Shown here: piece after piece, positions 38,054 through 59,576 of the stretch
How the letters are laid out: every line of letters starts with the position of its first letter
Numbering within the stretch: the first letter of the stretch is position 1
NCBI GenBank assembly: GCA_001897855.1
Contig: MKUO01000018.1
Coordinates: 147,513-211,512 of the forward strand
Source: Bacteroidetes bacterium 43-93
Lineage (GTDB): Bacteria > Bacteroidota > Bacteroidia > Chitinophagales > Chitinophagaceae
Length of the DNA stretch: 64,000 nucleotides
Direction: 5' to 3'
Notes under the pieces: generated by a model
The model's input: only the letters and a program-made list of their open reading frames with translations
Told to the model about the DNA's origin: nothing
Databases searched by the model: none
Translations under genes and position numbers: made by a program

Positions 38054-40792
38054 TTATTCTTTTATAACCTTTGCATTCGAACGCCTGCCATCTTCATCTG
38101 TCAGTTGCAACAGGTAGGTACCTTTCACCAGCGCTGATGTATTTATCCTGGTGGTAGCATCGGTGGAAGTTGTTTGCAGTACTATCCTACCCAGCACATC
38201 TGTAACAATAACCTGTGTACCTGCAGCAGCACCGTCTATCACCAATTCATCTATTACAGGGTTAGGATAGATCTTTACACCTGGCATCAGCTCTGCATTG
38301 GCAATACCTGTTGTATTTACACGCACCGTAATGCAATTGCTATTAGCTGATTTAGGCTGCGGGCATAAATAGCTGCTCGTCATTTCTACACATACCACAT
38401 CTTTATCGTTTAGTGTTTTGGCTCCCCATGTATAGCTGGTAGCACCCAATTCATTTTTATTATTGCGCTTCCATTGATATGCAGGTGCATTGCCACCATT
38501 AACCGGTGTAGCATTAAAACTGATGAGGTCGCCGCCTACTTCGTTGCCTGTTGCTGTAGTAGTGATACTTACAGAAGGTACCAGCCATGGGAATACCCGC
38601 ATCACTACCATATTGCTGGTATCAGTATATGGTGTTGCGCAGGTACCATTACTGGTAACCGTGCAATAGTACGTATCATAATCCGCAGTATGGGTATCTG
38701 TGTATTGCATGTTTGCAGCACCCGATATTGGTAACCCGTTCCTGAACCAGCGGAATGTATAACCGGTACCTGCATTACCTGCAAAGCCATGCAAGGTTAG
38801 CGGGCTTCCCTGGCAGATGCTATCGCCCGGGCTTGGGTAAACACCCGCACTTGGCGCCGGTATTACAGTCACTACAATACCAACATCTGCAGACGTACAG
38901 CCACCATCTATTGCGTGCACATTGTACGTACCTGCCGCGCTGACAGTAGTATTATTGATTACAGGGTTTTGCAAAAAGCTGGTAAAGCCATTAGGCCCGC
39001 TCCATATAAATCCCGGCCCTGTACCCCCGGCGCCCAGGGTGAGCGCCTGCCCTACACATACCGGCGTATTGGCTGTAATCGTTGGTGAGGCCGGTATTGC
39101 TATTACGTGTGCGTGGAGCGTATCTACAGCGGTGCAACCATTGAGTGTAGCTGCTAATATATAATCGCCGCTAACAGATGGCTGCGCACTGGTAAAAGAT
39201 ATACTCTGAGCAGTGGTACTGAAGCTATTAGGACCGCTCCACGCCCAGGTAACACCGGTGCTGCTGGTACCACCACTCATAGATAAAGTATTGCCCTGGC
39301 ATTGCGGGCTGTTATTTAGTATGGTAAAACTCTGTGGCAATGGCTTGATGCGCACATTAATACTGTCTTTGTAGGTACAGCCATTAAGACTGGCCGTACC
39401 TACGTAGTAACCCGTATCTGCAAAACCGATGTGCGCCCGCAAAGCATTGGCAGATGAGGAAGTATACGAATTGGGGCCTGTCCAGCTATAAGACACCCCT
39501 GCAAAACTACTGGCCGGGAATATCTTTAAAGTATCGGCCTGGCAAAGCGGGCTATTATAGGTCATGGTATATACAGGTAATGGATTCACCGTCATGGCAA
39601 TGGTATCTGATGCCTTGCAACCCATAAGCCATGCAGTGCCTATATAGGTGCCTGTATATAATGGCAATGCGGGATAAATGACGATACTGCTTCCATAATT
39701 CGCATAAAAACTACCCACCCTGGACCATCGGTAAGCCACACCACTGGTAGTGCTGCTTACCTGCATGCGAAGTGTATCGCCTTCACAAACGGGAGTATTC
39801 CCTGTAACAACCGGCTTGGCGGGAACAATGTTACCAATAACCACATACCCGCTGGGAGCGGAACTGTCCACCGGGCTGCTGGCCATAATACGAAACCTGT
39901 ATTTGGTACCGGATGATAAGGTTGCAGGAATCACACCTTTTAAAGTACCACTTACGTTTGTGGTAAGCGTTGCAATAGATGTAGCATGTACAAAGCTGCC
40001 TGTATCGTCTGATAGCTGCAATGTAAACGTATTGGTATTGCTATATACCCCATTGTATATTGTAAACGGCACAATGATGGAATCGCCTACACATAATGCC
40101 GTATCTGTAAAAGCAGGCGTGATATCTGTTGCCGGCTTCACTTCTATTGAGTCGAAATAATAATAGGCATAACTGCCGCTGCCAACCGATACCGTATAGG
40201 GAGTGGAAAGGAAATCGCCAATAACAAGGTTGCTGTATGCAGAATCTGCGACAAAAATTTTGGTGAGGCGCACCCAATGAGTTTCATCACGTATGGTGTC
40301 GGGGTAAAACACTTGCGGGGTTACAGTTAGTGTATTAGATCCTGTTGTGGTAGTGGACGGGCCATTCTTGTAAAACCATATTCCCAGGCCATTACATGCG
40401 TAGCCCGATACCTCGCCCAATGAAACAGACATGGACACTTTGTAAGTTGTACCCACTGACATAGTACCCATCGTACCAGCTACGTATTCTTTATAACCAC
40501 CTGTGTAGGAGCAATAGCCGCCAACATACGCGTTGCCGCTTGCTGCTGCCTGGCTCCCGGCAAAATTTACAGGTACACCGGTAATGGTAGATGTAGTACA
40601 GGAATTAAAATAATCGGAAGTGCCGGTATGATAAGAGCGCCAACCCGAGCAATCACTCGTTTGCCCGTAACTGCTCGGGCATATGGAGTAATTTTCAAAG
40701 TTTCCATTGTACACAATATTTTGAGCGTGTACCGAAGCATAGCTGATAAAAGAAAGTAGCAGCACAGTGCCGTACAGGAATAGGTATTTCAT
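38054..40792 (-). CDS. T9SS-secreted protein: CBM-like domain + 6 Ig/PKD-like repeats + CTD
   Basis: NGNFE..CP..GTSDYFN.C; repeats; VKIYPNP CTD. Confidence 0.8.
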   Translation of the reverse strand: MKYLFLYGTVLLLSFISYASVHAQNIVYNGNFENYSICPSSYGQTSDCSGWRSYHTGTSDYFNSCTTSTITGVPVNFAGSQAAASGNAYVGGYCSYTGGYKEYVAGTMGTMSVGTTYKVSMSVSLGEVSGYACNGLGIWFYKNGPSTTTTGSNTLTVTPQVFYPDTIRDETHWVRLTKIFVADSAYSNLVIGDFLSTPYTVSVGSGSYAYYYFDSIEVKPATDITPAFTDTALCVGDSIIVPFTIYNGVYSNTNTFTLQLSDDTGSFVHATSIATLTTNVSGTLKGVIPATLSSGTKYRFRIMASSPVDSSAPSGYVVIGNIVPAKPVVTGNTPVCEGDTLRMQVSSTTSGVAYRWSRVGSFYANYGSSIVIYPALPLYTGTYIGTAWLMGCKASDTIAMTVNPLPVYTMTYNSPLCQADTLKIFPASSFAGVSYSWTGPNSYTSSSANALRAHIGFADTGYYVGTASLNGCTYKDSINVRIKPLPQSFTILNNSPQCQGNTLSMSGGTSSTGVTWAWSGPNSFSTTAQSISFTSAQPSVSGDYILAATLNGCTAVDTLHAHVIAIPASPTITANTPVCVGQALTLGAGGTGPGFIWSGPNGFTSFLQNPVINNTTVSAAGTYNVHAIDGGCTSADVGIVVTVIPAPSAGVYPSPGDSICQGSPLTLHGFAGNAGTGYTFRWFRNGLPISGAANMQYTDTHTADYDTYYCTVTSNGTCATPYTDTSNMVVMRVFPWLVPSVSITTTATGNEVGGDLISFNATPVNGGNAPAYQWKRNNKNELGATSYTWGAKTLNDKDVVCVEMTSSYLCPQPKSANSNCITVRVNTTGIANAELMPGVKIYPNPVIDELVIDGAAAGTQVIVTDVLGRIVLQTTSTDATTRINTSALVKGTYLLQLTDEDGRRSNAKVIKE

Positions 40793-40878
40793 AAGATACA
40801 GTTTGGGTCTGCATCATGAAATTAACACTTTTAAAATGTATTATGCGCGGGCTAAAATTAAAATACGCTTAAGCTCTT

Positions 40879-43800
40879 CTATTGTTTTACAATGTGCGCC
40901 TTCAATAGCAAAACATCTTTAACTTTTAGTTGCAAAACATAAACACCACTTACCCACGCTCTGCTGCTGATGCCAATTATATCTTTTGTAGCTGTAGTAT
41001 GTACTATTATTCTACCCAGCATATCGGCTATCAGGATTTCTGTACCCACGTCCACACCCTCTATCTTCAATTCATCCGTTACAGGATTAGGATAGATGCG
41101 TATATTTTCTACTTCTGCCGATGCAATTGAGGAACTTGGAGTAATAACCGTTACGGTAATGCAACCATCTGCAACAGCCGGTAACGGACAGGTATAGTTG
41201 CTGGTCATTTCTACACATACCCTGTCATTATCTTTCAGGCTATCGCTGCGCCACACATTGCCTGTAGCGCCGGGTATATTGGCGCCGTTCAGCTTCCATT
41301 GATAGGATGGATTATCGCCGGCATCAACACCGGTTGCCTGGAAGCTAACAAGATCTCCGATAGTGTACGGCCCTACAGGTGTAGCAGCTATAGAAACCGA
41401 TGGCACCTTCCATGGCAATACCCGCATCACAATAGTATCGCCGGCAACGGTATCACTTACTGCGCAGGTATTGTCTGATATAATGTTACAGGAATAGCTA
41501 TCTCCGTTTGCTGCTGTACTGGTAATATAAACACTGCCACCGCTAAATATATTGGTATTGTTGTGTACCCATTGGTATTTGGGCGATGTGCCGGCATTGG
41601 CAGCAGTTGCCGTAAACGTCAGTATCGTTCCCTGGCATATACTATCTTTTGAAGAAGCAATATATACAGAGGGTGCCGGTATTACCACTACCGTAACAGA
41701 GGTATCGCGAGACGGGCAAACGCCATTGTAAGCCCTAACGGTATAAGCTCCGGCACTAGTGCTATCAATCTTCCGTATCAGCGTATCAGGTGCCTTGCTA
41801 TTAAAACCGGATGGGCCTTTCCATATATAGCTATTGCCCGGCGCGCTACCGGCATTCAATTTCAGATCCTGGCCGACGCACACAGGTGTATTGATAACCG
41901 GCGTGGGTGCAGCAGGCGTGTTCACCACAGCAACCATTTCGGTATCTCTTGCGCTGCAACCATTGATGGATGCTATTACAATATACCGTCCTGCATTAGA
42001 AGGCTGGATGTTTGTTATTGTTATGGTTGGCGTAAAAGCAGTATAGCCGGCAGGCCCAGACCACACATAGCCCACGCCCGTACCTGACGCCGTTGCCATA
42101 AGGGTAAGAATACTATCCTGGCAGAGATTCTTTTTACCTGAAACACTTAACGATGCCGGCAAAGGCTTTATTGTAACATCTACACTGTCTGTACTAAAAC
42201 ATCCGTTGGCCGCAGTTGCTGTTGCATAATACCTACCGGTGGCCGCAACCGTTGCAGCATCGATAAAAGTATCGCGGCTATTAGCAATGAAGCTTGCCGG
42301 GCCAGACCAGCCCCAGGTTACTCCCGAACTACTGGTGGCAGCGGAAAGAAATAATGTATCACCGCTGCATATAGTAGGGGTAACAGAAGAAGCAGTAACA
42401 GTAGCGGGGGACTGGTTGATCACAACATTAACCGTATCTTTTACATAGCAGCCATTTCCCGTAGAATAAGCAACTATATATCGTCCCGCAGCACCGGTTT
42501 GGGCACCGGAGATTACTGCTCTCTTACTTGTAGAAGAAAAAGATGGACCCGTCCACGAATAAACAACGCCTGATGACGTACTATTGGCCACAAGTATCAG
42601 CGAATCTCCGGAACAAATGGGCGTATTTGAAGAAGCAGTATGATTTGCGGCCACAGGCTTTACCAATACAGTAACCGTATCTTTTGCGGTACAGCCCGAA
42701 TAGGTACCGGTAAGAATGTAATCCCCCGACGTGACGGGTTGCGCCCTGGTAATGATAGCATTTTGAGAGGCAGACGAGAAGTTTCCCGGTCCTGACCAAC
42801 TGTAAGTGATTGTTCCCGAAGCGGAAGAACTCCCATATAATTTAAGTGTATCGCCGGCACATACAGGGCTGTTGCTGGTATTGGATACAATGCCTATAGT
42901 TGGCGTTACGGATACATTTGCAGTATCACGCCTGCGACATCCAAACAACCATGCACTCACAATATATTTACCTGCCTGCGCATATAGGATACCGGTACGT
43001 GTTGGTGCAGCTGTAGTAGCACTGAAAGAAGCAGGGCCGGACCATGTATAGTGTACCCCGGGAGTAGTACACGTAGCAGTAAGGTTTAGTGTACCTTGCT
43101 CGCACACGGGAGAATTACTGCCCGCAAGGGGCTTGGCCGGTATTACCGAACCAATAGCAATGGTACGGCTTACAAAAGATGTGTCTGCCTTGTTATCTGA
43201 TAATATACGGATGCGGTACCCGTTGGCGCCAGGTAAAGTAGAAGGCACCACCCATACAAAGGTACCTGCAGTATCGCTATACATTGTGCCGATGGTAGTA
43301 GCGTTATTAAACCTGCCCGAAGTATCTGACAACTGCAGTGTAAAGGTATTTCCTGCCTTATAGTAGTTGGTGCCCGCAATATAAAATGGCAAACGCAATG
43401 TATCACCTGCACAGAAGGCAGTATCAGGTAACACATAAGAGATACCCTTTACTTCTTTCACTACAACGGAATCTATATAATAATAAGCCGCCCCTGCAAT
43501 GGGTGAAGTGCCAAAACCGGTGCTTACAGGATAGGTGGTAGTGGTGCTGCCAAAGCCTCCTATCACGATATTATCATAAGCGGAATCAGGTGTGTATTGC
43601 GTAGTATATCTTACCCAGTTTTGCGTATCTGTAATGGCGCCAAAACTATAGAGTGAGATTTGTGGTGTGACAGTAAGCGCGCTGGACGAACCCGGCAAAG
43701 TAGCAGTTGGCCCATTGTGATAAAACCAGATACCAAGATCGCGCGTAGTATATCCCGAAAAATTGGACAGGCTAATAGATAGCGACACATCGTAAGTAAC

Positions 43801-44142
43801 CCCTTGATGAAGAGCGGTTATAGGCCTGGCTATATATTCTTTATAGGTTGTTGATACCAGGTAAGTATATATCCCTGCATAGCCATTGCCGCTTGCCGGC
43901 ACCTGGTAACCAAATGCATTGGACGGCGTGGATACGAGCGAACTGGTACTACAACTGTGCAAAAAATCAGCAGTACCTGTATGGTAAGACCTCCATCCGC
44001 TGCTATTGCCCATTTGGCTATAATCTGATGGACAGTTAACCACACCTTCAAAATTACCGTTGGGCACAGAGTTTTGTCCCAGGGCATCCGGGGAAAAGAA
44101 AACAATCAATAAAACACAGTAACAGGCGTACAAACACTTCAT
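40879..44142 (-). CDS. T9SS-secreted protein: CBM-like domain + 8 Ig/PKD-like repeats + CTD
   Basis: NGNFE..CP..GTADFLH.C; repeats; IRIYPNP CTD. Confidence 0.8.
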   Translation of the reverse strand: MKCLYACYCVLLIVFFSPDALGQNSVPNGNFEGVVNCPSDYSQMGNSSGWRSYHTGTADFLHSCSTSSLVSTPSNAFGYQVPASGNGYAGIYTYLVSTTYKEYIARPITALHQGVTYDVSLSISLSNFSGYTTRDLGIWFYHNGPTATLPGSSSALTVTPQISLYSFGAITDTQNWVRYTTQYTPDSAYDNIVIGGFGSTTTTYPVSTGFGTSPIAGAAYYYIDSVVVKEVKGISYVLPDTAFCAGDTLRLPFYIAGTNYYKAGNTFTLQLSDTSGRFNNATTIGTMYSDTAGTFVWVVPSTLPGANGYRIRILSDNKADTSFVSRTIAIGSVIPAKPLAGSNSPVCEQGTLNLTATCTTPGVHYTWSGPASFSATTAAPTRTGILYAQAGKYIVSAWLFGCRRRDTANVSVTPTIGIVSNTSNSPVCAGDTLKLYGSSSASGTITYSWSGPGNFSSASQNAIITRAQPVTSGDYILTGTYSGCTAKDTVTVLVKPVAANHTASSNTPICSGDSLILVANSTSSGVVYSWTGPSFSSTSKRAVISGAQTGAAGRYIVAYSTGNGCYVKDTVNVVINQSPATVTASSVTPTICSGDTLFLSAATSSSGVTWGWSGPASFIANSRDTFIDAATVAATGRYYATATAANGCFSTDSVDVTIKPLPASLSVSGKKNLCQDSILTLMATASGTGVGYVWSGPAGYTAFTPTITITNIQPSNAGRYIVIASINGCSARDTEMVAVVNTPAAPTPVINTPVCVGQDLKLNAGSAPGNSYIWKGPSGFNSKAPDTLIRKIDSTSAGAYTVRAYNGVCPSRDTSVTVVVIPAPSVYIASSKDSICQGTILTFTATAANAGTSPKYQWVHNNTNIFSGGSVYITSTAANGDSYSCNIISDNTCAVSDTVAGDTIVMRVLPWKVPSVSIAATPVGPYTIGDLVSFQATGVDAGDNPSYQWKLNGANIPGATGNVWRSDSLKDNDRVCVEMTSNYTCPLPAVADGCITVTVITPSSSIASAEVENIRIYPNPVTDELKIEGVDVGTEILIADMLGRIIVHTTATKDIIGISSRAWVSGVYVLQLKVKDVLLLKAHIVKQ

Positions 44143-44216: not shown

Positions 44217-44780
44217 TTAAAATATCTCTTTCGCCCTTTTGTAATAGGCTTCGCGGCCGGCAAGGCCGTTTTGTCCACCGTTAATAAGATAAGTTATGTA
44301 CTCGAACGGGCTATAACCGTGCTTTTTACTCCGCCAGGTATCGGGCAAATCCGCATACTTATTTAATTGCATTTTATTCCAGAACCAACCGGCAGATAGG
44401 CAGGCATATTGCGGTGTCTCCAATAACTGAGGATGCACAAGTAGGGTATTGATATCTCCAAACAATTCTTTGCTGCATTCCATATAATTATTGCGGCCGG
44501 TACATTGTATCAAACCCCGGCCTTTGTACTTCATACCATCACCCGGATGGATATTGCCTAGGTCTCTACGCCCTTCATATGCCCTACCATTGGCTAATTC
44601 TTTCGTATATCTGAAGCCGCCACTTTCGTGTGCCAGTTGCGCGATAAACATACAAATGCGTAATCTCGTTGTAATATCATAACGCTCCATGGTTTTATTT
44701 AGATAGGGAATAAAAACATCGGCATTTTTAGGAAGAAAGGGAACAGTATGTTGCAACTGTTCCATTGTTATGTAATTCAT
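44217..44780 (-). CDS. glycoside hydrolase family 19 endolysin
   Basis: FIAQLAHESGGF, GDGMKYKGRGLIQCTGRNNY, INGGQNGL; no signal peptide. Confidence 0.93.
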   Translation of the reverse strand: MNYITMEQLQHTVPFLPKNADVFIPYLNKTMERYDITTRLRICMFIAQLAHESGGFRYTKELANGRAYEGRRDLGNIHPGDGMKYKGRGLIQCTGRNNYMECSKELFGDINTLLVHPQLLETPQYACLSAGWFWNKMQLNKYADLPDTWRSKKHGYSPFEYITYLINGGQNGLAGREAYYKRAKEIF

Positions 44781-44800
44781 AGTGTTATTTTATTGGGGTT

Positions 44801-45373
44801 TTAGCGTTTAAGTAGCAGGCGGATCAATACGTACGCAATGAGGGTAACAACCAACCATTTTGCCCATAACAGGTAGACCCTGTCTTTTGCAAGTTTGGTA
44901 GTTGCATCCTGCAATTGTTGTTTCAGTGAATACTCGGCAGCGCGGTCGACCACACGCTTATAATTATTGATAAACACCGTATCGATACGCAGTTTTATAA
45001 ATGGCTTATATAACATCTTTTCAGGATGTTGTTCAGGAAAGACCTTGTCCTGAGGCACAGATTGCTCATATATTTTTTCTGTATCTCTTATGTATAAGGG
45101 TATGCCTTCTTTGTAAACCGTATTGATGGCTGCACTGTCTGTAGCAGGATAAAATGCTGCGCATGCGGCAGCCATTATATCAGGATGATGGAGCTGGACA
45201 CGTGCTATTTTGCGTTGGGCAGATCTTTCTGCATTGCAACTACAAAACATTAGCAGGCATACAGTAGTTAATGCCAGAGTCCAGGCGGAGAGCAGTGTGA
45301 CGAGCGAGGTTTTAGGTTGATGATGTTTCCATATTGATACAGTTTTATGGTGTGTTATTATCAGTAGATTCAT
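44801..45373 (-). CDS. candidate unimolecular spanin (N-terminal lipobox + C-terminal TM)
   Basis: LLMFCS|C lipobox; C-terminal YLLWAKWLVVTLIAYVLIRLLLKR; between holin and endolysin; start uncertain. Confidence 0.6.
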   Translation of the reverse strand: MNLLIITHHKTVSIWKHHQPKTSLVTLLSAWTLALTTVCLLMFCSCNAERSAQRKIARVQLHHPDIMAAACAAFYPATDSAAINTVYKEGIPLYIRDTEKIYEQSVPQDKVFPEQHPEKMLYKPFIKLRIDTVFINNYKRVVDRAAEYSLKQQLQDATTKLAKDRVYLLWAKWLVVTLIAYVLIRLLLKR

Positions 45374-45599
45374 TTTCTTCAGGTATAATGCCAAACATTT
45401 TTGATAAGCCAAGTACGATGATGTCAAGGCCTTTTAGGTAAAGCAGGATGCGCACTTTCATCATATCGGGTATAGAGGGGTCGCCGGCCACAACAAAAGC
45501 AACTGCTGTAGTTAGTATTGTGGTGATTCGAAACCCCCATTTTGCCCAAACGGGTGTTTCTAATAAGATACCATCTGTACCAAATTTTAAATTTTTCAT
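45345..45599 (-). CDS. putative holin (2 TM)
   Basis: 84 aa, two hydrophobic segments, charged C-tail, in lysis cassette. Confidence 0.6.
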   Translation of the reverse strand: MKNLKFGTDGILLETPVWAKWGFRITTILTTAVAFVVAGDPSIPDMMKVRILLYLKGLDIIVLGLSKMFGIIPEENESTDNNTP

Positions 45600-45604
45600 A
45601 GTGT

Positions 45605-45844
45605 CTATTTTTGAAGTTTATATTTAAGAATTTCAATATCGTCAGCATTCTTTGCGACCTCCCGCTCTACATAATCCAGTCGTTGGCCTTGCATACGGTA
45701 CTCGGCTTTGTTTTCCTGGATAGCAATCATAACATTCAGGTACAGCCTTACACCTACGCTTACACATGCGATAGCAGAAAGGATAATTGTCCAGACGAGT
45801 TTTAATGTTATACCCCTTAATTCTTTTTGTTCCACGTTTGTCAT
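45605..45844 (-). CDS. small 1-TM + coiled-coil protein (holin/antiholin-like)
   Basis: LVWTIILSAIACVSVGVRLYL TM followed by heptad-rich tail. Confidence 0.5.
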   Translation of the reverse strand: MTNVEQKELRGITLKLVWTIILSAIACVSVGVRLYLNVMIAIQENKAEYRMQGQRLDYVEREVAKNADDIEILKYKLQK

Positions 45845-45862
45845 AGTGATAGTATTTAATAT

Positions 45863-46606
45863 TTATGGGATGCCCCATTTATTGGTTGTATATGCTCTTA
45901 CGGCCGCATCATTAGGTGTACCGCCCTGGTATATATAAATACCTTTGATACTGAGACTACTTGTGTTAGTGCCTATATAACCGATGCCGATTGGCGATGA
46001 AGCTGTAGCAGTACCCACTGATCCGATGACGGAAGAAGTATTGACGGACAGTGAAGAGGAACTGCCATTCCAGCTACCTTTGAATAGATAATAAGTACTA
46101 TTGACCGGATGCAAAGACGCCAGACTAAGTGTGCCGGTATTCGCATATATCTTAAATGTGTTGGTACTACTTGCCCGTTCCACATCCATAAAAGAATTTG
46201 TGGCACCATTATCATAAAACATAATAGCCCCGTCACTATTCGCTATGATATTTACAGCTGCAACAATATAAATGGTATAGGGCTGAGACAGGGAAGCAGA
46301 CTGATACATGGCCTGTCCTGAGGATCCCTGGAAAGTAATTGCATTAGTACCATTCCAAACAGGTTTTAAGGTGGCATTAGATTGCAGCCAGTTTCTACCG
46401 TTCCCACTCTTATCATTCCATTGACTGACATTATTAGACGATTGAGTGATAGAAGATGCATCATCCGCTTCGTAATATGCCCAAAGATTAGTTGCGGGCA
46501 GTGTGGGAGAAGCTGTCGCGCTATATTTCCACCCATTAACAATTATGCGTTGTGCATGCAGATTAAAGAACGATACGCAGCACATGCTAAAAAATAACTT
46601 TCTCAT
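45863..46606 (-). CDS. LamG/concanavalin-like lectin-fold protein with Sec signal peptide
   Basis: MRKLFFSMCCVSFFNLHA|Q; YYEADDASSI..VSQWNDKSGNGRN; start overlaps fibre stop (TAATG at 46608-46604). Confidence 0.65.
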   Translation of the reverse strand: MRKLFFSMCCVSFFNLHAQRIIVNGWKYSATASPTLPATNLWAYYEADDASSITQSSNNVSQWNDKSGNGRNWLQSNATLKPVWNGTNAITFQGSSGQAMYQSASLSQPYTIYIVAAVNIIANSDGAIMFYDNGATNSFMDVERASSTNTFKIYANTGTLSLASLHPVNSTYYLFKGSWNGSSSSLSVNTSSVIGSVGTATASSPIGIGYIGTNTSSLSIKGIYIYQGGTPNDAAVRAYTTNKWGIP

Positions 46607-48852
46607 TAGAATCCTTGTGTTAATCCTGTACAATCCCATTTACTATCAGCGCCGTTATAAACAAACATTATGTACATAGTTTTACCGGCAACAGTAGTTG
46701 TTGGCAAAGCAAAATCAGATCCCGCCCGGTAACTGGCAGCCCAGCTAAGCGCCCTGGTAGTTCCATTGTCCTTAATTCGTACAAGCAACGTATTGTGATT
46801 TACAGCAGTACCAGAAGGAGCCGAAAAGCTTGCATTCGTGGCAAGTGCAGTTATGTCCAGATAATTTTCCCGTCCATCACCTTGTGGCGCCGGCGTTGCA
46901 GAAGAGGTAACACCACCTTCAACATATTGCACCAGGGTGCCCGATATGGTTGGGACAGTCATAGTACCTGTATTTATAAAGGAAGATATTACCGGTGCGG
47001 TTAAAGTTTTATTAGTCAGTGTTTCCGTACCTGCTATGGTAGCAAGTGTACCGGTTAACGGTAGGGCTATATTTGTAGCTCCAGTTGTTGTAAGCGTCAG
47101 TGCATTGGCACCGCTGGTAGTTAAAGAACCAGCAAGCGTAATATCACCGGCTATATCGATAGACCTGCTTGCATCATTCAATTTTAAATTTAGTAGCCTA
47201 TTGGCTGTTAAAGTTTCATTCGGCTTTATGGTCAAGGTATTCGCAGATGCTCCTTTAATATTCAGTCCTGACTGGCCAAGCGTAACACTGGAGATATCAG
47301 TATTTATCCCTGTGGCAGCTTTTGCATTTAAAGCTGTGTTCAAATCTATTTGCGAGGAAAGAGTACCTGTGATGGAACCCCAGGTCGCGCCACTACCATG
47401 TGCAACCCATCCTGTATTTCCGGTTCCGGATTCTTTAACGTAGAAAGTTGCACCAGAGCTTCCGTCAGTACGGGTATAAACACTACCTACTGGAGCTGAG
47501 ATTACTGCATTAGGACTTCCCGTGCCTGCGCTTAAGAAAGCGGTAGTATTGCTGATAAACGCCTTAGTCTTAATAGTAAAATCTCCTTGTACACGACAGG
47601 TACCACCTACATCAAATTTAAAGCCACCATCAGAATTATTTGTTGCTCCAACCGAAACATTAAAAGTGGAAGGAAACACCTTTATGACGGCGCTGGTCAG
47701 ATCATTAATAGAAGTATTATTTAGATAGCCGCCTATTCCCAGCGACCCATCATGATTAAACCGTGCCAGTATTTGCGCAGCGGCATTATTACCGGCGATG
47801 CCCGCAGAAGTTGAAGATGCTAAATAAAAACAGCCAGAACTACTTGATTGAGCCATACCCAAAACTTGTCCGAAACCATTCTGCCTTAAAACCAAAGCCG
47901 GATTCAAATAAGCGTTATTACCGATAAACGCATTAGACAATACACCCTGAGCTTCAAGAGTACCTATTTGTGCTCCTACTATTGTCGTTGTGGAGGGTAA
48001 GCTAAGACCAATATTATTTTGCGCCGGGACTGTAATTCCCACGGTACTTCCGTTGTCGCGAATAACCCCATTACCTAACGTATTAACTCCGGTAAATACA
48101 GGAACTCTTCCGCTACTTCCTGAAATATTTGAATTAAATCTCGTATCAAACCTACTATTTGTCCAATATAAATTACTGCCTTCAGCAAGGTTTGTAGTTG
48201 TCTTGGTGGCTAGTCTCGCATCCCATAAACTATTAAAATCTGTTATCCCGTATCCACCAATTGTAGTAGGTGTTGCGGTAATAGTATTCCATTGCTGTGT
48301 GCCTGTGTGATTAGCTCGATTAAGAAAGTAAGAGCTATTAAACCCATTTAAAAATGAAGCATTCAAAGCAAATTTAGCAGTATCGGCATAGAGCGCGCTA
48401 TCGACCTTTTCCATGGTAGAAAGCCAGGGCACAGCTATTGTATTACCATTACTGATAGCAATATGCTGGCTGTCTGGCAGAGAAAGTGTTTGTAACTCGT
48501 TGGTAATACTTCCATCTACTTCTGTAGCCAGGTATCCAAAAGATTTAATCCTGCTATCCAAAGCACCTATGCTGTCCTTCAGCCTGCTAACAGTCGCGTA
48601 TGTGTTGCTATCCACGGCAATTGAAATGCCAGCACATTTATCTCGTAACTGCAGATTACCTAAAGAATCTATGCCAATGACTTTACAGGTATCCGTTGTT
48701 GCATATCGCAACAGCCGCACTACACTATCCACGTGCAACGATCCCATTACCTGGTTGCTGTCTCTTTTATTGATACTTCCTAAGGGCTTAGTTGTTTGGG
48801 CTATTGTATTCACAGAGTACAATAGTGCTAATATTCCTATATTTTTTTTCAT
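46606..48852 (-). CDS. tail-fibre-like protein with Sec signal peptide
   Basis: MKKNIGILALLYSVNTIA|Q; NRANHTGTQ, TPTTIGGYGITD, TNLAEGSNLYWT, APVGSVYTRTDG..YVKESGTGNTGW, WGSITGTLSSQIDL, ETLTNKTLT motifs. Confidence 0.75.
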   Translation of the reverse strand: MKKNIGILALLYSVNTIAQTTKPLGSINKRDSNQVMGSLHVDSVVRLLRYATTDTCKVIGIDSLGNLQLRDKCAGISIAVDSNTYATVSRLKDSIGALDSRIKSFGYLATEVDGSITNELQTLSLPDSQHIAISNGNTIAVPWLSTMEKVDSALYADTAKFALNASFLNGFNSSYFLNRANHTGTQQWNTITATPTTIGGYGITDFNSLWDARLATKTTTNLAEGSNLYWTNSRFDTRFNSNISGSSGRVPVFTGVNTLGNGVIRDNGSTVGITVPAQNNIGLSLPSTTTIVGAQIGTLEAQGVLSNAFIGNNAYLNPALVLRQNGFGQVLGMAQSSSSGCFYLASSTSAGIAGNNAAAQILARFNHDGSLGIGGYLNNTSINDLTSAVIKVFPSTFNVSVGATNNSDGGFKFDVGGTCRVQGDFTIKTKAFISNTTAFLSAGTGSPNAVISAPVGSVYTRTDGSSGATFYVKESGTGNTGWVAHGSGATWGSITGTLSSQIDLNTALNAKAATGINTDISSVTLGQSGLNIKGASANTLTIKPNETLTANRLLNLKLNDASRSIDIAGDITLAGSLTTSGANALTLTTTGATNIALPLTGTLATIAGTETLTNKTLTAPVISSFINTGTMTVPTISGTLVQYVEGGVTSSATPAPQGDGRENYLDITALATNASFSAPSGTAVNHNTLLVRIKDNGTTRALSWAASYRAGSDFALPTTTVAGKTMYIMFVYNGADSKWDCTGLTQGF

Positions 48853-49265
48853 GGTGTTGTTACATATTGAAAGTCTATTTCTCCGGAGATCATTCCATCT
48901 CCTATTTCATATCCGCTAAAATCCAGGTAGGGTGTTTGTCCTTCCTCACCAGGCTGATCTTTCTTATTTTGAATCACACACAGCTTTGCCCATTTAAATG
49001 GTGCACCATCTACAAAAATGATGGGAGCCAATTGATTTCTAAATAAATTACTGTACACAATATTTATAGGCATATCTACTAACACATTACCCCATTGCCA
49101 GCTTATTCCATCAGCACCTTTAGCACCTTTCGGCCCCATATTGATTAATTGTATTTCAAACCTATTTCTGACAGCAGGTTGTATTTGATATACACTTCGG
49201 GCAGGCGTTTCAATTTTGATAATATTGGTACAGCCCTGTTTCACAATTACTATTCCAAAACTCAT
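48849..49265 (-). CDS. tail-region protein with short collagen-like stub
   Basis: GPKGAKGADG; ATGA overlaps on both sides. Confidence 0.5.
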   Translation of the reverse strand: MSFGIVIVKQGCTNIIKIETPARSVYQIQPAVRNRFEIQLINMGPKGAKGADGISWQWGNVLVDMPINIVYSNLFRNQLAPIIFVDGAPFKWAKLCVIQNKKDQPGEEGQTPYLDFSGYEIGDGMISGEIDFQYVTTP

Positions 49266-49600
49266 CCGTTAATATTTACTTCGCCGTTAACAATGGTTTT
49301 GATCTCATCTGCAACCTGTCTGCGAATACGGAAACAATATTTATCACACAAGTCAATACTATTCCAAAAGGTTATATCGATTGCAAACGAAGCTATCACT
49401 TCACCGGCATCCAATGTAGCGGTGAGGCTATTGGCGATTGCATAATCGCGACGATGGACATCCAGGGTAAAAGTGCAGCCATGAAGGCTTTGAACTACGC
49501 CGGTTGCATCCGTAATTTGTATATCAATATTTCCTGTGTCCTGGTAACGTAGCACAAGGGTGCTTTGCTGGCTCACGTCCAGCTCTAATTTTGATGACAT
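49262..49600 (-). CDS. BppU-N-like baseplate/fibre anchor domain
   Basis: 112 aa beta-rich; LHGCTFTLDV...YCFRI...KTIVNGEVNI pattern. Confidence 0.5.
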   Translation of the reverse strand: MSSKLELDVSQQSTLVLRYQDTGNIDIQITDATGVVQSLHGCTFTLDVHRRDYAIANSLTATLDAGEVIASFAIDITFWNSIDLCDKYCFRIRRQVADEIKTIVNGEVNING

Positions 49601-49645
49601 ATAAAAAGGGTTTAGGTTGTCTGGTTTAAAAGTGTTCCTCTGATG

Positions 49646-51535
49646 TTAATCAGTAATAATTCTCCATTTCATATTATTAAAGGCAGTCCTTGCAGTGGAA
49701 GATGCTGATGTAGGCGGGGCAGAAATAGTATTATGTGATAGATCTATCGCAAATGAATTGTATCCATAGCCTATTTTACAGTAATTGTAAAATTCATTGA
49801 TAAAATCATCTACCGCAGTGCTTGTAAGAGTATTATACGTAATCCCGGTGTAAATCAATTTTGCAAAGGGCTTATAACCAGCTGATGCCAATGATGATGC
49901 CCAACCCGGAACAATTTTCTCAATACTGCACCTATCAAGATATAAAGCCTGGAGACTGTCTTTGGCAGGCGCAAGAAACGACAAATCAAAACCAGTAGCT
50001 CCACCCAAAGCCAAATGTGTGAGACGCAGAAAGGTAAGGTTAGCCGATATCCTGCCCGTAATATTTGAGACAGCCGCTACCGGACTAAGCGAATTCCTGA
50101 TGATTTCAAAATTCACTTCCTCATCCCGATGAAATATACGTACCGCTTGTGCGCCGGTTGTCGCAAACTCGTATGCTACTGTGCATGTATTACCACTGCC
50201 GATATTAGTAAACAAATCTTCCGTACCGGACGTAGCAGCAAAGCAGGCAACATGCATATGCAGCTTACTATCAGCGTAGGTCACCTTGTATTGCATGTAT
50301 CGTTGCGATGGATAAGATGTTACAGCATTCAGAACTAACATGTTAGGGTATATCTGCAACGGAAGTGGCTGATAATGATAAAATCGCTCACCCGGTGCGT
50401 TAATAAGAAATATGTCATTACCATCACGTTCTAAAACTGTAGCGTGCCCCGCCGCCGCAATATTTGTATTAAAACTTCCCACCCATGCATCAAGGCCCAA
50501 ACTATCATCAAATACTCTGGCAAAAGAGCCTTGCGCATTTAATACTGATATCATTGTAAAATTATCTGTAATGACACATTGATTAATTGCAAAAGGAAAA
50601 TCAACAGCGGTAAATAATTTTATTCTTCGTTGCGTGAATGTGTATCCGTCGTCACTGTCTTTTTGCCTGAGTGTTACTGTGCGCCATTGTACATGCTTAT
50701 CCTCGCTGCCACTGCGTTCCAGTTTACCATCCTGCCAAACATATTCACGGCCATCTACTCTAAAATATCCATCCTTACAACATTGCAACGAACGGTTCAC
50801 TACATCTATCATGTACTCAGGCAAGCCGGTATACCCTCCTATATCCCATTTAAATACATTGTATGCTTCCGCATCCAGTGTTACAGTATTGCGGTCCTGG
50901 TCTTCAAACACAGTATAATCACCACCCGGTTCATAGCTCATGCCGTTACTTTCTATTCGGTAGGCAAACCTTGGCATTAGTTGTTCAAACAACACATCAT
51001 GTCCATTTGTTAGCTGATTATACTCTACAAGGGATGTACCCGGATGATTTGCACTTAACAAGATAGGATTGCTCCTGTAATTCAAAATATCGGTCACTCC
51101 GTTGAAATACCAGATCATATCAAAATAGATATACTTTTTCCCGGCAAGCTCAGGAATAGACGCAGGCGTGAACAAAAACTGCTCTGTATATAGCTGCTCA
51201 CCAGTTATGCCATCTACTACACCGGATAACGCGTAAGAAGATGTAAGGCTTACAACCTTTAGCAGCGTATTGCTACCTACTTCAAAGATCCGCAGCTCGC
51301 TTGGGTTAGTTACATTGGTATTATCACCTGTACGTCCGCGATGATAATGAATACATACGGGATCATTCAGTCCCAGCTTTTGATAATATTGCTCACGGAC
51401 CTGTCCCGGACGAATGGCATCTATCTGCAATGCGTCGCCAAAGGCGGGATAGCCCCATCGATCACCTGGAAATACAGCATCAACTTCTGCAAAACGATAA
51501 GGGTTTATAGACGGAAACCGTACTATTATTGACAT
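49646..51535 (-). CDS. tail tip / receptor-binding-like protein with C-terminal LRR-like segment
   Basis: position after hub; LTFLRLTHLAL, LQALYLDRCSI, ITYNTLTSTAVD. Confidence 0.5.
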   Translation of the reverse strand: MSIIVRFPSINPYRFAEVDAVFPGDRWGYPAFGDALQIDAIRPGQVREQYYQKLGLNDPVCIHYHRGRTGDNTNVTNPSELRIFEVGSNTLLKVVSLTSSYALSGVVDGITGEQLYTEQFLFTPASIPELAGKKYIYFDMIWYFNGVTDILNYRSNPILLSANHPGTSLVEYNQLTNGHDVLFEQLMPRFAYRIESNGMSYEPGGDYTVFEDQDRNTVTLDAEAYNVFKWDIGGYTGLPEYMIDVVNRSLQCCKDGYFRVDGREYVWQDGKLERSGSEDKHVQWRTVTLRQKDSDDGYTFTQRRIKLFTAVDFPFAINQCVITDNFTMISVLNAQGSFARVFDDSLGLDAWVGSFNTNIAAAGHATVLERDGNDIFLINAPGERFYHYQPLPLQIYPNMLVLNAVTSYPSQRYMQYKVTYADSKLHMHVACFAATSGTEDLFTNIGSGNTCTVAYEFATTGAQAVRIFHRDEEVNFEIIRNSLSPVAAVSNITGRISANLTFLRLTHLALGGATGFDLSFLAPAKDSLQALYLDRCSIEKIVPGWASSLASAGYKPFAKLIYTGITYNTLTSTAVDDFINEFYNYCKIGYGYNSFAIDLSHNTISAPPTSASSTARTAFNNMKWRIITD

Positions 51536-51687
51536 TTTCTAAAAAAGGGTTTATGGTTATAGTTTATTTTTATGGCAATGGCATCTACTATTGCCATAAA
51601 AGACAATCAGCTATTTATCTAATGTTGTTAAAGGATCAATCAGTAAATATGATTTACTTTTAAGCAGACCACATCACAACATTTCCT

Positions 51688-52284
51688 CTATTTCTTGCCT
51701 GGTTCCGGCTGATTTAATATATCACTTATGATATTAACGTTCTGCAATACCTTAAATTGGGGATCGAGATATTCGTTCATCTCTACATCATTTGTGATGA
51801 TATCTCCTGAGAAATATATTTTGTACTGAACATAGTAATAAGCAAATTTCTGAGCATCCGCATTTTTAGCAGCTTTATCAAGGCTATCTTTTTCTTTCTG
51901 ATCCCTTGCGGTATACTTAAGGTAGTTCTCTGCCCGTGTCAAATCTTTTTGGTATGCATTCTCTTTGTAAGCAGGCACTTCCATGTGGTTTCGATGATAG
52001 GAATCAATTTCGGCAGAATCATCTTTAGCTTGTGCAACAGCCTCCTCGTATCCGTAATGATAACTCTCTATAGCGGAGATGGCCTCTTTAATACGATTGT
52101 TTATTGCCTGCTTTTCCGTGTATTTATCTACTTTCAACACTACGATACTATCTATCCGTTGATGTTTGCCCGCATCCAGGCCTGTAGAATGAAATTGTGT
52201 CAGGCTATCTTTTATTTTTTCTTCGGTACTTGTATTACCGCAGGCAGATAGTAAAACACAAACTGGTAAAAGGTATTTATACAT
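51688..52284 (-). CDS. lipoprotein moron inserted in the tail operon
   Basis: MYKYLLPVCVLLSA|C lipobox; flanked by intergenic gaps, unlike the coupled neighbours. Confidence 0.7.
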   Translation of the reverse strand: MYKYLLPVCVLLSACGNTSTEEKIKDSLTQFHSTGLDAGKHQRIDSIVVLKVDKYTEKQAINNRIKEAISAIESYHYGYEEAVAQAKDDSAEIDSYHRNHMEVPAYKENAYQKDLTRAENYLKYTARDQKEKDSLDKAAKNADAQKFAYYYVQYKIYFSGDIITNDVEMNEYLDPQFKVLQNVNIISDILNQPEPGKK

Positions 52285-52337
52285 AATTGGCTTTTTGATG
52301 GCTAAAAATAACACAGTTTATCTAACGCGAAAAAAAA

Positions 52338-54494
52338 TCAATAGATCAGTTTACTTAGATCATTTACAGGAGATGACAATAACTCAAAATCAAACAACTG
52401 CCTGCGACCATAGTTAATGCCAACACTCAAAACAAAACCATATAGATCTATATTCCGGTAATTGAATTTAAACACACCATAAGGGTTAGACTCCAAAATA
52501 TCAAAAAGATCTTTGGGTGGAATTCCCTTAAACTTGAATATATAAGGCTGGTATAATTGCTGCCCAATCAATGTATTTGCTTCTATATCCGCTCGCTCTA
52601 CTACCGTTACTGAACCCGGGAAGGTACTGTACGTTGCTTTATCCTGTTCTGCCGTTTGAAACTTCAAAAAGGAACTGGCATATCCATGCATTATAGATTT
52701 AAACACACCTGCGCAGCGCATGATATTTCTTGCAGGGGTAAGTGCTGCATTATAAGCACGTTCCGGGAAGTCGACACCTTTTATCACTGCGGTCCTATCC
52801 AGGTCATAAATACCATCCGTTGCAGTACTATTAATGTACACCAGAAAATTCCTGTTTGTGTCATCGCGCTTGGTATTATTAACAGCGACCGTATTATCTA
52901 AGTTTTGTAACCGCACCAGTTCAATATAATTCATGGCAGCATAAAACGGACTTACCATATCCATCTTATTTTTATTACTATCAACATATTTTGTATTGGG
53001 CAACGTACGGGTCACTTTGTCATTATATTCATTTACTTTGTTTATATCATCAATACCGTCACCACCTTCATATCCACACTCAACTGTGGTAGCCATGCTA
53101 TCAGGGTCTGCTATGATCTCCAGGTCTGTTATGGAAGATATCTCACCTAATACAGTATTCTTATCGTAAAAGCTGCTAAGGTGTTCTACCACTAACTGAT
53201 TATTCTTTACTCCAAGCCCCGCCTGGTGCCTTGCAATAATATCTTTTATCATATCAGATAACTTTACCTTAATTACAGGTGAACTTGTATACGTCTTTAA
53301 CGATTGCTCAGAAAGCATAATCGTATGAAGCGGTATGGCATCATAATACAATCTGGAATTTAACGACTGGGAGGTAAATCCTGTTTGTAGTTTGTATTTT
53401 CCATCCGAGAGCTTTTGTGTCAGTTTGTCCATTACCTGCCACCATCTATATCCTTTTCTTGCGTTCAAAGCTCTGTCAGTGCTTTGTGCACTGTTAGTCT
53501 CACAATTGATGTAAAAAGCTTTTTCGCCCGATGGGTTTATAATCACAGCGCAGGACCTGGTACCGGATGTATCGGCAAGTTTGATCTCAGCGATAAACGT
53601 ATTGCCTGCCGCAAGGTTTAATTTTATAGAGCCTGCAACATTAGTTGTCAAAGAGGCGAAAGGAGCAAGCACGGGCGAAGTATAAATAGCAACTTCGTTC
53701 AACAACGTACTGCTATCGGGCTGGCCAGACCACACTCTAAAATAAACAATAGCACTGTTATTACCGGTAGCAGACGAAACTTCCAGGTCAAAATCATACT
53801 GCACATTGATCGTAGTATTATAAATGGCGGTAAAATTGGGCACCTTGATAGCGGGAAAATAGTCAGCGTCTGAGCTCTGTCCGTAGCCTGCTGCTATATC
53901 CCCCTCCTGCCTTACATAAGCAAGCCGTAGCACAACAGGACTAAAGTGCTCCGTTAACCCCACTGTAGATAGAGCTGCAGATGACAAATAACGGTATGCA
54001 GTTTTTAATATAATGCCATCCATGTTCACCCTTACACAGTCCGCATCATCTATAGGTACTTCATAATCAGTACTTCCGTATGCATCCACCAGTTCTGCCA
54101 GCCCGCCCTGCATAGTGTTTACTTCTACCTGGTCGCGGGTAGAATGAAAAGTAGCGAAATCAATAGTATCTACAAACTGGGTAATATACTCCTGCGTAGT
54201 GTCATCCAGTATCTCAATCACCAGCTCGCAATAAGCGGTAATGCCACCTTGTGTATAATAAAGGTATCGCATGATAGCCGCGCCATCCTTCACAAATTTT
54301 ATTGTAGAGGATTGCTTCCTGAATATTCCTTTATAAACACCATTCCTCACCCACGAGCATTGTATCTCGTCCCAGTTAGCAACACTCTGAAGTATGGGGG
54401 TTTTAGTGGCAATTGTCGTTACCTGCGAACCAGCAACAGCCAGGTAAGCAGTGTCGTTCGTTCTCAAATAAAACCGGTATGGCGTCTTTTGCAT
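52338..54494 (-). CDS. tail tip / baseplate hub-like protein
   Basis: 718 aa immediately after the tape measure; beta-rich. Confidence 0.55.
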   Translation of the reverse strand: MQKTPYRFYLRTNDTAYLAVAGSQVTTIATKTPILQSVANWDEIQCSWVRNGVYKGIFRKQSSTIKFVKDGAAIMRYLYYTQGGITAYCELVIEILDDTTQEYITQFVDTIDFATFHSTRDQVEVNTMQGGLAELVDAYGSTDYEVPIDDADCVRVNMDGIILKTAYRYLSSAALSTVGLTEHFSPVVLRLAYVRQEGDIAAGYGQSSDADYFPAIKVPNFTAIYNTTINVQYDFDLEVSSATGNNSAIVYFRVWSGQPDSSTLLNEVAIYTSPVLAPFASLTTNVAGSIKLNLAAGNTFIAEIKLADTSGTRSCAVIINPSGEKAFYINCETNSAQSTDRALNARKGYRWWQVMDKLTQKLSDGKYKLQTGFTSQSLNSRLYYDAIPLHTIMLSEQSLKTYTSSPVIKVKLSDMIKDIIARHQAGLGVKNNQLVVEHLSSFYDKNTVLGEISSITDLEIIADPDSMATTVECGYEGGDGIDDINKVNEYNDKVTRTLPNTKYVDSNKNKMDMVSPFYAAMNYIELVRLQNLDNTVAVNNTKRDDTNRNFLVYINSTATDGIYDLDRTAVIKGVDFPERAYNAALTPARNIMRCAGVFKSIMHGYASSFLKFQTAEQDKATYSTFPGSVTVVERADIEANTLIGQQLYQPYIFKFKGIPPKDLFDILESNPYGVFKFNYRNIDLYGFVLSVGINYGRRQLFDFELLSSPVNDLSKLIY

Positions 54495-57981: not shown

Positions 57982-57988
57982 GGTATTA

Positions 57989-58237
57989 CTATTTATAACC
58001 TATGCCGGTAAGCTCGCTGATGCGATGTAACAAGGGCGTGCGCACATAGGTATCAAACAAATAAGCATTGGGGCCTGTGGGTGCATAAGGGGTTTGCTGC
58101 AATACATCTGTAAATGGCAGTGCAAAAGGTGTCGTAGTGTTATCTATATGCAGGCCACTATCTTCTACCGCTGTGGCTACTGCTTCATGCACATCTACTG
58201 CCTGCAGCCTCTTCTTCATTTCTAATGCGTATGCCAT
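57989..58237 (-). CDS. short tail-completion-like hypothetical protein
   Basis: 82 aa between tube and chaperone genes. Confidence 0.35.
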   Translation of the reverse strand: MAYALEMKKRLQAVDVHEAVATAVEDSGLHIDNTTTPFALPFTDVLQQTPYAPTGPNAYLFDTYVRTPLLHRISELTGIGYK

Positions 58238-58251
58238 AAGGGAGATAAAGA

Positions 58252-58274
58252 CAGGGCGCGGCTTACACGCCCTG
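58252..58274 (-). terminator. intrinsic terminator inside the late operon
   Basis: CAGGGCG-N9-CGCCCTG followed by TCTTTATCT on the minus strand. Confidence 0.6.
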
Positions 58275-58289
58275 CTTTGGTTTTATTGG

Positions 58290-59548: not shown

Positions 59549-59576
59549 GTTGTTTAAAAAGGTTTAGGTATTGTTC

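Follow-up and report, generated by a model that had tools for sequence, protein, structure and literature searches.

Predicted Sec signal peptides of the host's Q-rule type on a tail fibre and a lectin of a Bacteroidota prophage remnant

Introduction

Tailed-phage tails are assembled in the cytoplasm in every studied case that we know of. The long tail fibres of T4, the Stf fibres of lambda and the L-shaped fibres of T5 are pre-assembled separately and attached last, and the side fibres of model phages are accessories that can be dispensed with; fibreless particles can be complemented in vitro. Other phage products, namely signal-anchor-release (SAR) endolysins and exported proteins of lysis or exclusion such as P1 Lyz, spanins and T5 Llp, use the host Sec pathway. 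Here we analysed a stretch of 64,000 nucleotides from Bacteroidetes bacterium 43-93 (contig MKUO01000018.1, positions 147,513 to 211,512; hereafter the window), which holds a prophage remnant in whose tail module two coupled genes, for a 748-residue tail fibre and a 247-residue lectin, begin with predicted Sec signal peptides that place glutamine directly after the cleavage site.

In Bacteroidota, substrates of Sec and signal peptidase I that carry Gln at +1 are well established as following the Q-rule (Bochtler et al. 2018, PMC5837995; Szczesniak et al. 2023, PMC10653852), and the pyroglutamate formed from this residue stabilises extracytoplasmic proteins (PMC5837995, PMC10653852). The Q-rule itself is already known, and signal peptides of phage proteins have been mentioned in passing in two papers (PMC8776804, PMC10367356): the lyase proteins of Ingeline and Nekkels were said, in one sentence and without interpretation, to 'also carry signaling peptides' (Bartlau et al. 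2021, PMC8776804), and five Q-rule genes of Porphyromonas gingivalis prophages, left without an assigned function, were read as modifiers of the host surface (Matrishin et al. 2023, PMC10367356). Conversely, target proteins of phage diversity-generating retroelements lack signal peptides, and this was taken to support their phage origin (Benler et al. 2018). A literature search of incomplete coverage returned no paper that names tail fibres as Sec substrates or discusses the consequences for assembly.

Signal peptides of the fibre and the lectin

The fibre gene (46606-48852, minus strand) starts with an ATG that overlaps the TGA of the upstream gene for a 138-residue protein (ATGA), and the ATG of the lectin gene (45863-46606, minus strand) overlaps the TAA stop of the fibre gene (TAATG). 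The fibre N-terminus is MKKNIGILALLYSVNTIA followed by QTTKP, with cleavage predicted before Q19 (48796-48852, minus strand; given at greater length, the protein starts MKKNIGILALLYSVNTIAQTTKP), and that of the lectin is MRKLFFSMCCVSFFNLHA followed by QRIIV, with cleavage predicted after A18 (residues 1-19 including Q19 at +1, 46550-46606, minus strand; at greater length, MRKLFFSMCCVSFFNLHAQRIIV). Signal peptides were called with a crude heuristic on the n-, h- and c-regions, the criterion for a substrate of Sec and signal peptidase I being a positive n-region, an uncharged hydrophobic core of 7-15 residues and small residues at -3 and -1. The three regions are MKK, NIGILALLYSV and NTIA in the fibre, with Thr at -3, and MRK, LFFSMCCVSFF and NLHA in the lectin, with Leu at -3, which signal peptidase I sites tolerate and which is less common there. 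Both proteins have an n-region of charge +2, an uncharged hydrophobic core of 10-11 residues, with a Kyte-Doolittle value of 2.6-3.0 in an 8-residue stretch, and Ala at -1, and so combine the anatomy of signal peptides cut by signal peptidase I with a conserved Gln at +1 after the predicted cut. The initial annotation had described both proteins as beginning with a signal peptide and then Q; its coordinates and sequences proved exact, and the tripartite anatomy confirms the reading.

Across the window the heuristic flags the fibre, the lectin, a lipoprotein of the tail module and host proteins, which include four cargo proteins of the type IX secretion system (T9SS), a class that must cross the inner membrane via Sec. 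In the tail module it picks out nothing beyond the fibre, the lectin and the one lipoprotein, and no signal peptide was called on the tape measure or on the 718-, 629-, 138- and 112-residue tail proteins. Gln stands at +1 in 9 of the 10 host proteins of the window with signal peptides resembling type I, two T9SS cargo proteins among them, which indicates that the phage fibre and lectin carry the host's own kind of signal peptide.

Neither protein contains a lipobox: the fibre has no Cys in residues 1-55, and Cys9 and Cys10 of the lectin sit inside the hydrophobic core after Ser-Met. Searches of Pfam and NCBIfam gave no match to a T9SS C-terminal domain (CTD; type A, TIGR04183/PF18962, or type B or C) in either one, as had been stated at the outset, and in the same run both neighbouring giant proteins matched TIGR04183. 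An SAR domain, which is a weakly hydrophobic N-terminal transmembrane helix that stays uncleaved, is about 20 residues long and has much Gly, Ala and Ser, was considered and rejected, as the cores span 10-11 residues and a canonical cleavage site comes after them.

Conservation and evolution of the signal peptides

An exhaustive HMMER search with residues 20-165 of the mature fibre found the N-terminal anchor in P0003, P0150, P0236 and P0251, which with the window fibre (P0001) and P0002 form an anchor family of six members (30-86% identity). All six have a signal peptide and Q19 is an invariant column of the alignment, whereas the hydrophobic core before it cannot be aligned and the peptides are unrelated in sequence (MKKNIGILALLYSVNTIA, MRRIIFFIAVLLHVSATA, MRKILLILFLAFTYVGHA, MRYLFILLLITSTAYG). 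The genomic context was read for four members, P0002, P0003, P0150 and P0236, and in each it is a phage tail module. P0003 lies in a prophage with an integrase (L001), where three consecutive genes, two fibres and a lectin, bear signals; P0150 belongs to an apparently complete temperate phage of 52 kb (L101) that shares the tail module and also encodes an integrase and a CI-like repressor; and P0236 comes from a phage of another type, whose capsid is lambda-E-like (L103). In L001 a gene for an N6/N4 DNA methyltransferase (5688-6461) lies inside the signal-bearing run, between the second fibre and the lectin.

The close relatives of the lectin, seven in number, all have a signal peptide that ends in Ala or Gly before Gln. 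Among distant lectin homologs none was found, neither in the 78 on IMG/VR viral contigs nor in the approximately 17 of the protein database, and because these homologs are without it the lectin signal peptide is best read as a derived addition. Since the seven relatives form one clade, it was gained once and has been kept since. This distribution shows a predicted signal peptide that was added to a lectin which works without one in other phages.

The signal peptides also diverge faster than the proteins they precede. Between the fibre and P0002 identity is 74% in the signal peptide and 91% in the mature part, and in three lectin pairs it is 79, 58 and 53% in the signal peptide against 90, 90 and 82% in the mature part. 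Such drift is what is seen in real signal peptides, and an N-terminal helix with a structural role would not be expected to show it. Of the 80 proteins with fibre motifs in common, 27 have signal-like N-termini, and in 22 of these 27, judged by eye, Gln follows a small residue; three of the signal-bearing proteins were looked up and all stand in phage contexts, often beside further signal-bearing genes. Conservation of the predicted signal peptides is thus beyond chance, and the hydrophobic N-terminus that the initial annotation expected homologs to keep is present in all relatives sharing the N-terminus. Searches with the alignment of the 629-residue protein against genome and viral contigs, with the fibre against genome contigs and with the capsid protein against viral contigs returned no related loci.

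The same trait in cultured phages

Consecutive genes for distal tail proteins with Q-rule signal peptides also occur in isolates, namely in four phages of Cellulophaga. In phi10:1, a lytic siphovirus of the Assiduviridae, the five genes gp091-gp095 all have such signals, and gp091-094 bear the GenBank labels structural protein, tail fiber or pectate lyase, assigned 'based on experimental MS/MS proteomics' (tandem mass spectrometry). In phi18:3 (Pachyviridae), gp085-087 have Q-rule signal peptides and are all annotated as virion proteins from MS/MS, and further runs of consecutive signal-bearing genes are found in phi46:3 (gp079-083) and in Ingeline_1 of the Duneviridae (gp31-34). In the signal-bearing cassette proteins of these four isolates Gln follows a small residue in 17 of 17 cases. 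The same trait in fibres from purified particles of marine phages suggests, by analogy, that such fibres mature outside the cytoplasm.

The Cellulophaga cassette of adaptor, spike and fibre (L010 41847-48878; L107 2865-9092; L016 4041-10449; L020 5348-11040) occurs in three virus families. The spike gp093 of phi10:1 and gp088 of phi19:3 (Pachyviridae) are 97% identical over the full length, signal peptide included, and what these families have in common is limited to the signal-bearing proteins and does not extend to the adjoining signal-less tail genes. In the protein that opens the cassette the N-terminal part differs by lineage while the C-terminal part is common to all, whereas in the spike and the fibre the N-termini are conserved and the bodies vary. 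From this layout we infer a branched receptor-binding complex on one adaptor, which would self-assemble and dock as a unit.

A trait of the whole phylum was ruled out by signal-less fibres in Flavobacterium phage 11b and Bacteroides phage B40-8, as well as in Cellulophaga phages phi17:2 and phi14:2; signal-less fibres in four Bacteroidota phages make the trait lineage-specific. Fibres with predicted signal peptides are widespread in Bacteroidota phages, though lineage-specific.

Architecture of the fibre and the lectin

The 748-residue protein was assigned as a mosaic tail fibre from its open reading frame (ORF), the ATGA coupling, shared fibre modules, the domain map and PHROG matches, and it combines modules common to established fibres with a distal position in a siphovirus tail module, shortly before the lysis genes. 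It consists of the signal peptide (residues 1-19), an N-terminal anchor domain of the mature protein (20-160; 48373-48795, minus strand) that is common to P0003, P0150, P0236 and P0251, repeats (160-250), a domain at 336-485 and a second module at 486-748. The five fibre motifs quoted in the initial annotation are all present in the translation. Residues 336-485 (with YVKESGTGNTGW) repeat internally a domain that about 50 other fibre-like proteins carry at the C-terminal end, and residues 650-748, the end of the second module, form the C-terminal part of further fibres. By tblastn, segments of the fibre match proteins that are annotated as tail fibre or tail protein in phages of Klebsiella, Mycobacterium, Tsukamurella and Methylophilaceae, and about 75 proteins share its modules, several of them with pectate-lyase, collagen or Peptidase_S74 domains; searches of the fibre sequence against Pfam and the PDB gave no useful match. 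Because two separate modules of C-terminal type match annotated fibres, the gene looks like a fusion of two fibre units or genes. In prophage L001 the counterparts of the two fibre halves are separate genes. An AlphaFold model of the first 165 residues, built from six sequences, had a predicted local distance difference test score (pLDDT) of 38 and was unusable.

A repeat at residues 95-155 of the fibre (with EVDGSITNELQTLSL; 48388-48570, minus strand) is common to hundreds of large Bacteroidota proteins, some of which end in a FISUMP-like tail, VRCVRD. Among the best 147 matches to the repeat, 122 have a signal peptide and 107 have Q at +1. The presence of the repeat in cellular secreted fibrous proteins also implies that phage fibres and those proteins exchange modules, and such exchange is a possible source of the fibre signal peptide.

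The 247-residue protein was assigned as a lectin from its coupling to the fibre, a family alignment, an AlphaFold2 model and Foldseek. An alternative in-frame ATG upstream, chosen by some gene callers, gives a product of 258 residues. The family alignment contains the motif VSQWNDKSGNGRN, and PF13385 (Laminin_G_3) is on record for the homologs P0087 and P0089; the window lectin itself scores below the Pfam threshold for this family. In the AlphaFold2 model (pLDDT 80.9, predicted TM-score 0.80) an N-terminal helix (residues 2-17) and a disordered linker of low confidence (16-30) precede a beta-sandwich (41-227). Foldseek placed the model in the concanavalin A (ConA)-like lectin/glucanase fold, with matches to a trans-sialidase lectin domain, the Hc of botulinum neurotoxin and ERGIC-53 (E down to 5e-8). 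The protein is thus a ConA/LamG-like lectin by predicted fold, with putative carbohydrate binding.

The prophage remnant and its neighbourhood

The element that carries both genes (about 44217-62407) is, from its gene content, an 18-kb prophage remnant that runs from a capsid gene to an endolysin gene. On the minus strand the order is capsid homolog, head-tail genes, tape measure, 718-residue protein, lipoprotein, 629-, 112- and 138-residue proteins, fibre, lectin, holin-like protein, an 84-residue protein, spanin candidate and endolysin of glycoside hydrolase family 19 (GH19), and the order from the tape measure through the 718-, 629-, 112- and 138-residue proteins, the fibre and the lectin to the lysis genes is also found in the intact phage L101 and in prophage L001. 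The left end of the remnant is the homolog of a major capsid protein (61256-62281, minus strand; 29% identity over 98% of the length to Pseudanabaena phage Pan5; phrog_7231). The 911-residue tape-measure-like protein (54495-57230, minus strand) was assigned from a weak match to phrog_339, its position and its composition. Three of the signal-less tail proteins that follow are the 718-residue virion structural protein of the tail tip (52338-54494, minus strand; phrog_15220, E 5.6e-28), the 629-residue distal tail or baseplate protein (49646-51535, minus strand; synteny with L001 and L101, no family match) and the 112-residue protein (49262-49600, minus strand; conserved upstream of the gene pair). 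The 138-residue protein (48849-49265, minus strand), also signal-less and a candidate docking partner, is conserved beside the anchor-family fibre in L001 (112 residues) and L101 (155 residues).

Directly downstream of the lectin lies a gene for a 79-residue protein with one transmembrane segment (45605-45844, minus strand), conserved in L001, for which its position suggests a holin role. It is followed by a candidate unimolecular spanin (44801-45373, minus strand), which carries a lipobox (LLMFCSC) at the N-terminal end and a transmembrane segment at the C-terminal end and a homolog of which has the same position in L001, and by the GH19 endolysin, which has no signal peptide (44217-44780, minus strand; PF00182; phrog_181, E 1e-56). 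Between the genes of the 718- and 629-residue tail proteins stands the lipoprotein gene (51688-52284, minus strand), whose product begins MYKYLLPVCVLLSAC followed by GNTS. It has four O-glycosylation motifs of the Bacteroidota kind (shuffle P = 0.002), the intact L101 has no called gene at this place, and the product may be an exclusion lipoprotein similar to T5 Llp.

The remnant is without terminase, portal, integrase and regulatory genes and has host genes on both flanks. In intact relatives the capsid gene is preceded by TerS, TerL, a gene of portal size and one for about 290 residues, and the lysis genes are followed by integrase and repressor genes. Here, a gene for a 170-residue protein with a Q-rule signal peptide (MRKIYIAAIALLLSAGTSIA followed by QTKPK; 62526-63038, minus strand) lies directly upstream of the capsid gene, where the intact relatives have packaging genes, with host genes further upstream; the protein had no family match. 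Downstream of the endolysin are two giant T9SS proteins and a two-component system. The two giants are paralogous Ig-repeat proteins (1087 and 912 residues) with T9SS type A CTDs, whose genes (38054-44142, minus strand) abut the endolysin gene. An F-type tailocin was ruled out, since an intact capsid homolog and head-tail genes are still present.

A relative with 87% nucleotide identity (L002) has the same junction of endolysin and T9SS gene, and the gene of the 1087-residue T9SS protein follows the endolysin there as well, with 92% amino-acid identity. All nine genes compared between the window and L002 are intact, and in the eight for which it could be computed the ratio of nonsynonymous to synonymous substitution rates (dN/dS) is 0.06-0.13 at dS 0.39-0.96, the fibre having 0.11 and the lectin 0.13 at a dS of about 0.48. 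These values fit vertical inheritance of the remnant under purifying selection and suggest that it has been domesticated by its host, which leaves room for a host-serving role of an exported fibre and lectin. The source organism occurs in wastewater and bioreactor metagenomes; contigs of RNA-labelled and size-fractionated runs on the element are patchy, come from diverged relatives and are uninformative on expression.

A model for export and late docking, and its alternatives

In light of these data, the best overall explanation appears to be export through Sec, cleavage, and docking onto particles at or after holin-triggered lysis, an account to which we give an even chance. Its parts differ in strength: export of the fibre and the lectin via Sec is highly probable from their sequences and those of their relatives, and docking onto finished tails at or after lysis is plausible, if a shade less secure than the account as a whole. 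Gln at +1 matters only to signal peptidase I and the periplasmic cyclase, and its conservation is therefore hard to explain without translocation and cleavage. The export part of the earlier interpretation has strong support from comparative evidence, namely the host Q-rule form, the invariant Gln and the clade-specific signal. As to what would follow export, the initial annotation offered two alternatives, that the proteins join the particle at lysis or that they have been repurposed as adhesins or receptor-masking proteins, and the first is favoured because annotations from MS/MS place the equivalent signal-bearing fibre, spike and adaptor proteins of phi10:1 and phi18:3 in virions. The presence of the window fibre and lectin in virions would accordingly rest on GenBank annotations of analogous, non-homologous phage proteins.

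In this model the late operon would be translated as a unit, as both start codons overlap the preceding stop. The tail tube, the tape measure and the tip proteins, which have no signal peptide, would assemble in the cytoplasm, while the fibre and the lectin would be threaded unfolded through SecYEG, cut after Ala18 by signal peptidase I and capped when periplasmic glutaminyl cyclase turns the new N-terminal Gln into pyroglutamate. Both would fold and oligomerise in the periplasm and, having neither a T9SS CTD nor a lipobox, would stay there. The holin would then open the inner membrane so that cytoplasm and periplasm mix; a canonical hole-forming holin would be needed, given that the GH19 endolysin has no signal peptide. 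Finally, the fibres would dock via the mature N-terminal anchor onto finished tails, at lysis or in the fresh lysate, and together with the lectin would probably act as accessory side fibres.

Several observations weigh against this account. The signal-peptide heuristic produced at least one false positive, the 622-residue protein of L101, and export, cleavage and pyroglutamate formation are all read from sequence. Homologous pectate-lyase spikes of the myovirus phi17:2 and the crAss-like phi14:2 have no signal peptide; that of phi14:2 is verified in virions by MS/MS and that of phi17:2 is annotated by similarity to phi4:1, so export is not needed for folding or function of the module. Docking after the compartments have mixed must be fast or tolerate dilution, and we know of no precedent for it in a tailed phage. 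Detection by MS/MS is compatible with co-purification, and, without terminase, portal and integrase, no complete virion would come from this locus alone. Two rationales for export were tried and rejected. O-glycosylation finds no support in the whole fibre, which is not enriched in motifs (P = 0.27; its five D-[ST]-[AILVMT] motifs all lie within residues 42-159), or in the lectin, which has none; the signal-bearing proteins of the isolates are no richer in such motifs than the signal-less ones, and in the positive control the T9SS neighbours have 19 and 11 motifs, counts that 0 of 2000 shuffles reached (P<0.0005). As to disulfide bonding, P0003 and P0150 keep Cys56 and Cys73 of the fibre but P0236 and P0251 have other residues there, and the signal-bearing proteins of the isolates contain few cysteines, in irregular numbers.

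The alternative that we consider unlikely, yet worth serious attention, is that both proteins are exported and do their main job outside the virion, in the periplasm or the lysate, in receptor masking or superinfection exclusion, as a free lectin or depolymerase that prevents progeny from sticking to debris, or, in this remnant, as host-domesticated secreted fibres. The export signals are equally strong evidence for such a role, and a remnant unable to make virions has nevertheless kept its fibre and lectin under the constraint given above; the repeat at residues 95-155 links the fibre to many cellular secreted proteins, a lipoprotein gene lies within the same tail module, and the Q-rule genes of P. 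gingivalis prophages have been read in a comparable way (PMC10367356). However, the counterparts in phi10:1 and phi18:3 are listed among the virion components on the basis of MS/MS, the anchor family has, wherever its context was read, been found only in phage tail modules and coupled to the preceding tail gene, and the fibre retains a full fibre architecture with modules common to bona fide fibres. Moreover, without a CTD or a lipobox neither protein has a known route to the cell surface.

It is considerably less likely that the signal-like N-termini are not used for export at all, with the fibres folding and attaching in the cytoplasm and the N-terminus being retained, for a role at the baseplate or membrane, or cut by another protease. 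Cytoplasmic tail assembly is canonical for all studied tailed phages, signal-less homologs function in phages of the same hosts, and trimeric fibres that fold quickly could evade Sec. If the helix at the N-terminus were structural, however, its sequence would be conserved, whereas here it drifts faster than the rest, a hydrophobic core of 10-11 residues is too short for a membrane anchor, and the Gln that follows a small residue both in the motif-sharing proteins (22/27) and throughout the cassette proteins of the isolates (17/17) would be left without a reason. Wrong start codons, or two hydrophobic N-termini arisen by chance, are hardly credible. The in-frame Met36 of the fibre and the extension of the lectin ORF to the upstream ATG by gene callers could be cited in their favour, but residues 20-35 of the fibre are conserved in P0003 and P0150 and are therefore translated, both starts overlap the preceding stop, and the trait recurs in every relative sharing the N-terminus and in isolates.

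Returning to export with late docking, we put forward, as a tentative generalisation in which we place rather less confidence than in the account for this locus, that many Bacteroidota tailed phages may have a periplasmic branch of morphogenesis, in which a portable, exported, pyroglutamate-capped cassette of adaptor, fibre, spike and lectin pre-assembles in the periplasm and docks onto particles of cytoplasmic origin only when the holin breaches the inner membrane. As docking would need one adaptor only, the cassette could move between unrelated tail types. If this is true, a virion could be completed only through lysis and with the Sec system, signal peptidase I and glutaminyl cyclase of the host, which would count as new host factors and offer new targets for defence or inhibition. 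A fibre cassette would not be tied to the tail type, which would explain the exchange of cassettes between families, and host-range prediction for Bacteroidota phages of gut, oral, marine and wastewater habitats would be affected. Annotation pipelines that count a signal peptide against a virion role, as some papers do, would mislabel such proteins. The claim is directly testable on the cultured phages phi10:1 and phi18:3, for which MS data exist.

Comparison with known systems

Domesticated defective prophages and F-type tailocins resemble the remnant in having tail and lysis genes without packaging or integration genes, and in vertical inheritance and purifying selection; the remnant differs in keeping capsid and head-tail genes. 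With the fibres of T4, lambda and T5 the proposed scheme shares separate pre-assembly and late attachment, whereas those fibres are all made in the cytoplasm and none has a signal peptide. P1 Lyz, the spanins and T5 Llp are likewise late phage proteins that use Sec and act at the time of holin firing, and an Llp-like lipoprotein gene is present in this module; they are, however, non-virion proteins, and an SAR domain is an uncleaved weak anchor, whereas the window proteins have short signal peptides of cleavable type. The P. gingivalis prophages likewise have genes with Q-rule signal peptides, although those genes have not been identified as tail fibres. Compared with the Q-rule substrates of Bacteroidota, the tripartite signal peptide, the small residue at -1 and Gln at +1 are the same, but the known substrates are cellular proteins of the periplasm, the outer membrane or the secreted fraction, whereas here they are phage tail proteins of structural type with predicted cleavage and cyclisation. 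The Cellulophaga cassettes share with this locus a Bacteroidota host and consecutive distal-tail genes with Q-rule signal peptides beside lysis genes; they have no sequence homology to the window fibre anchor or lectin, and the phages that carry them are complete and cultured, with some of the proteins verified by MS/MS.

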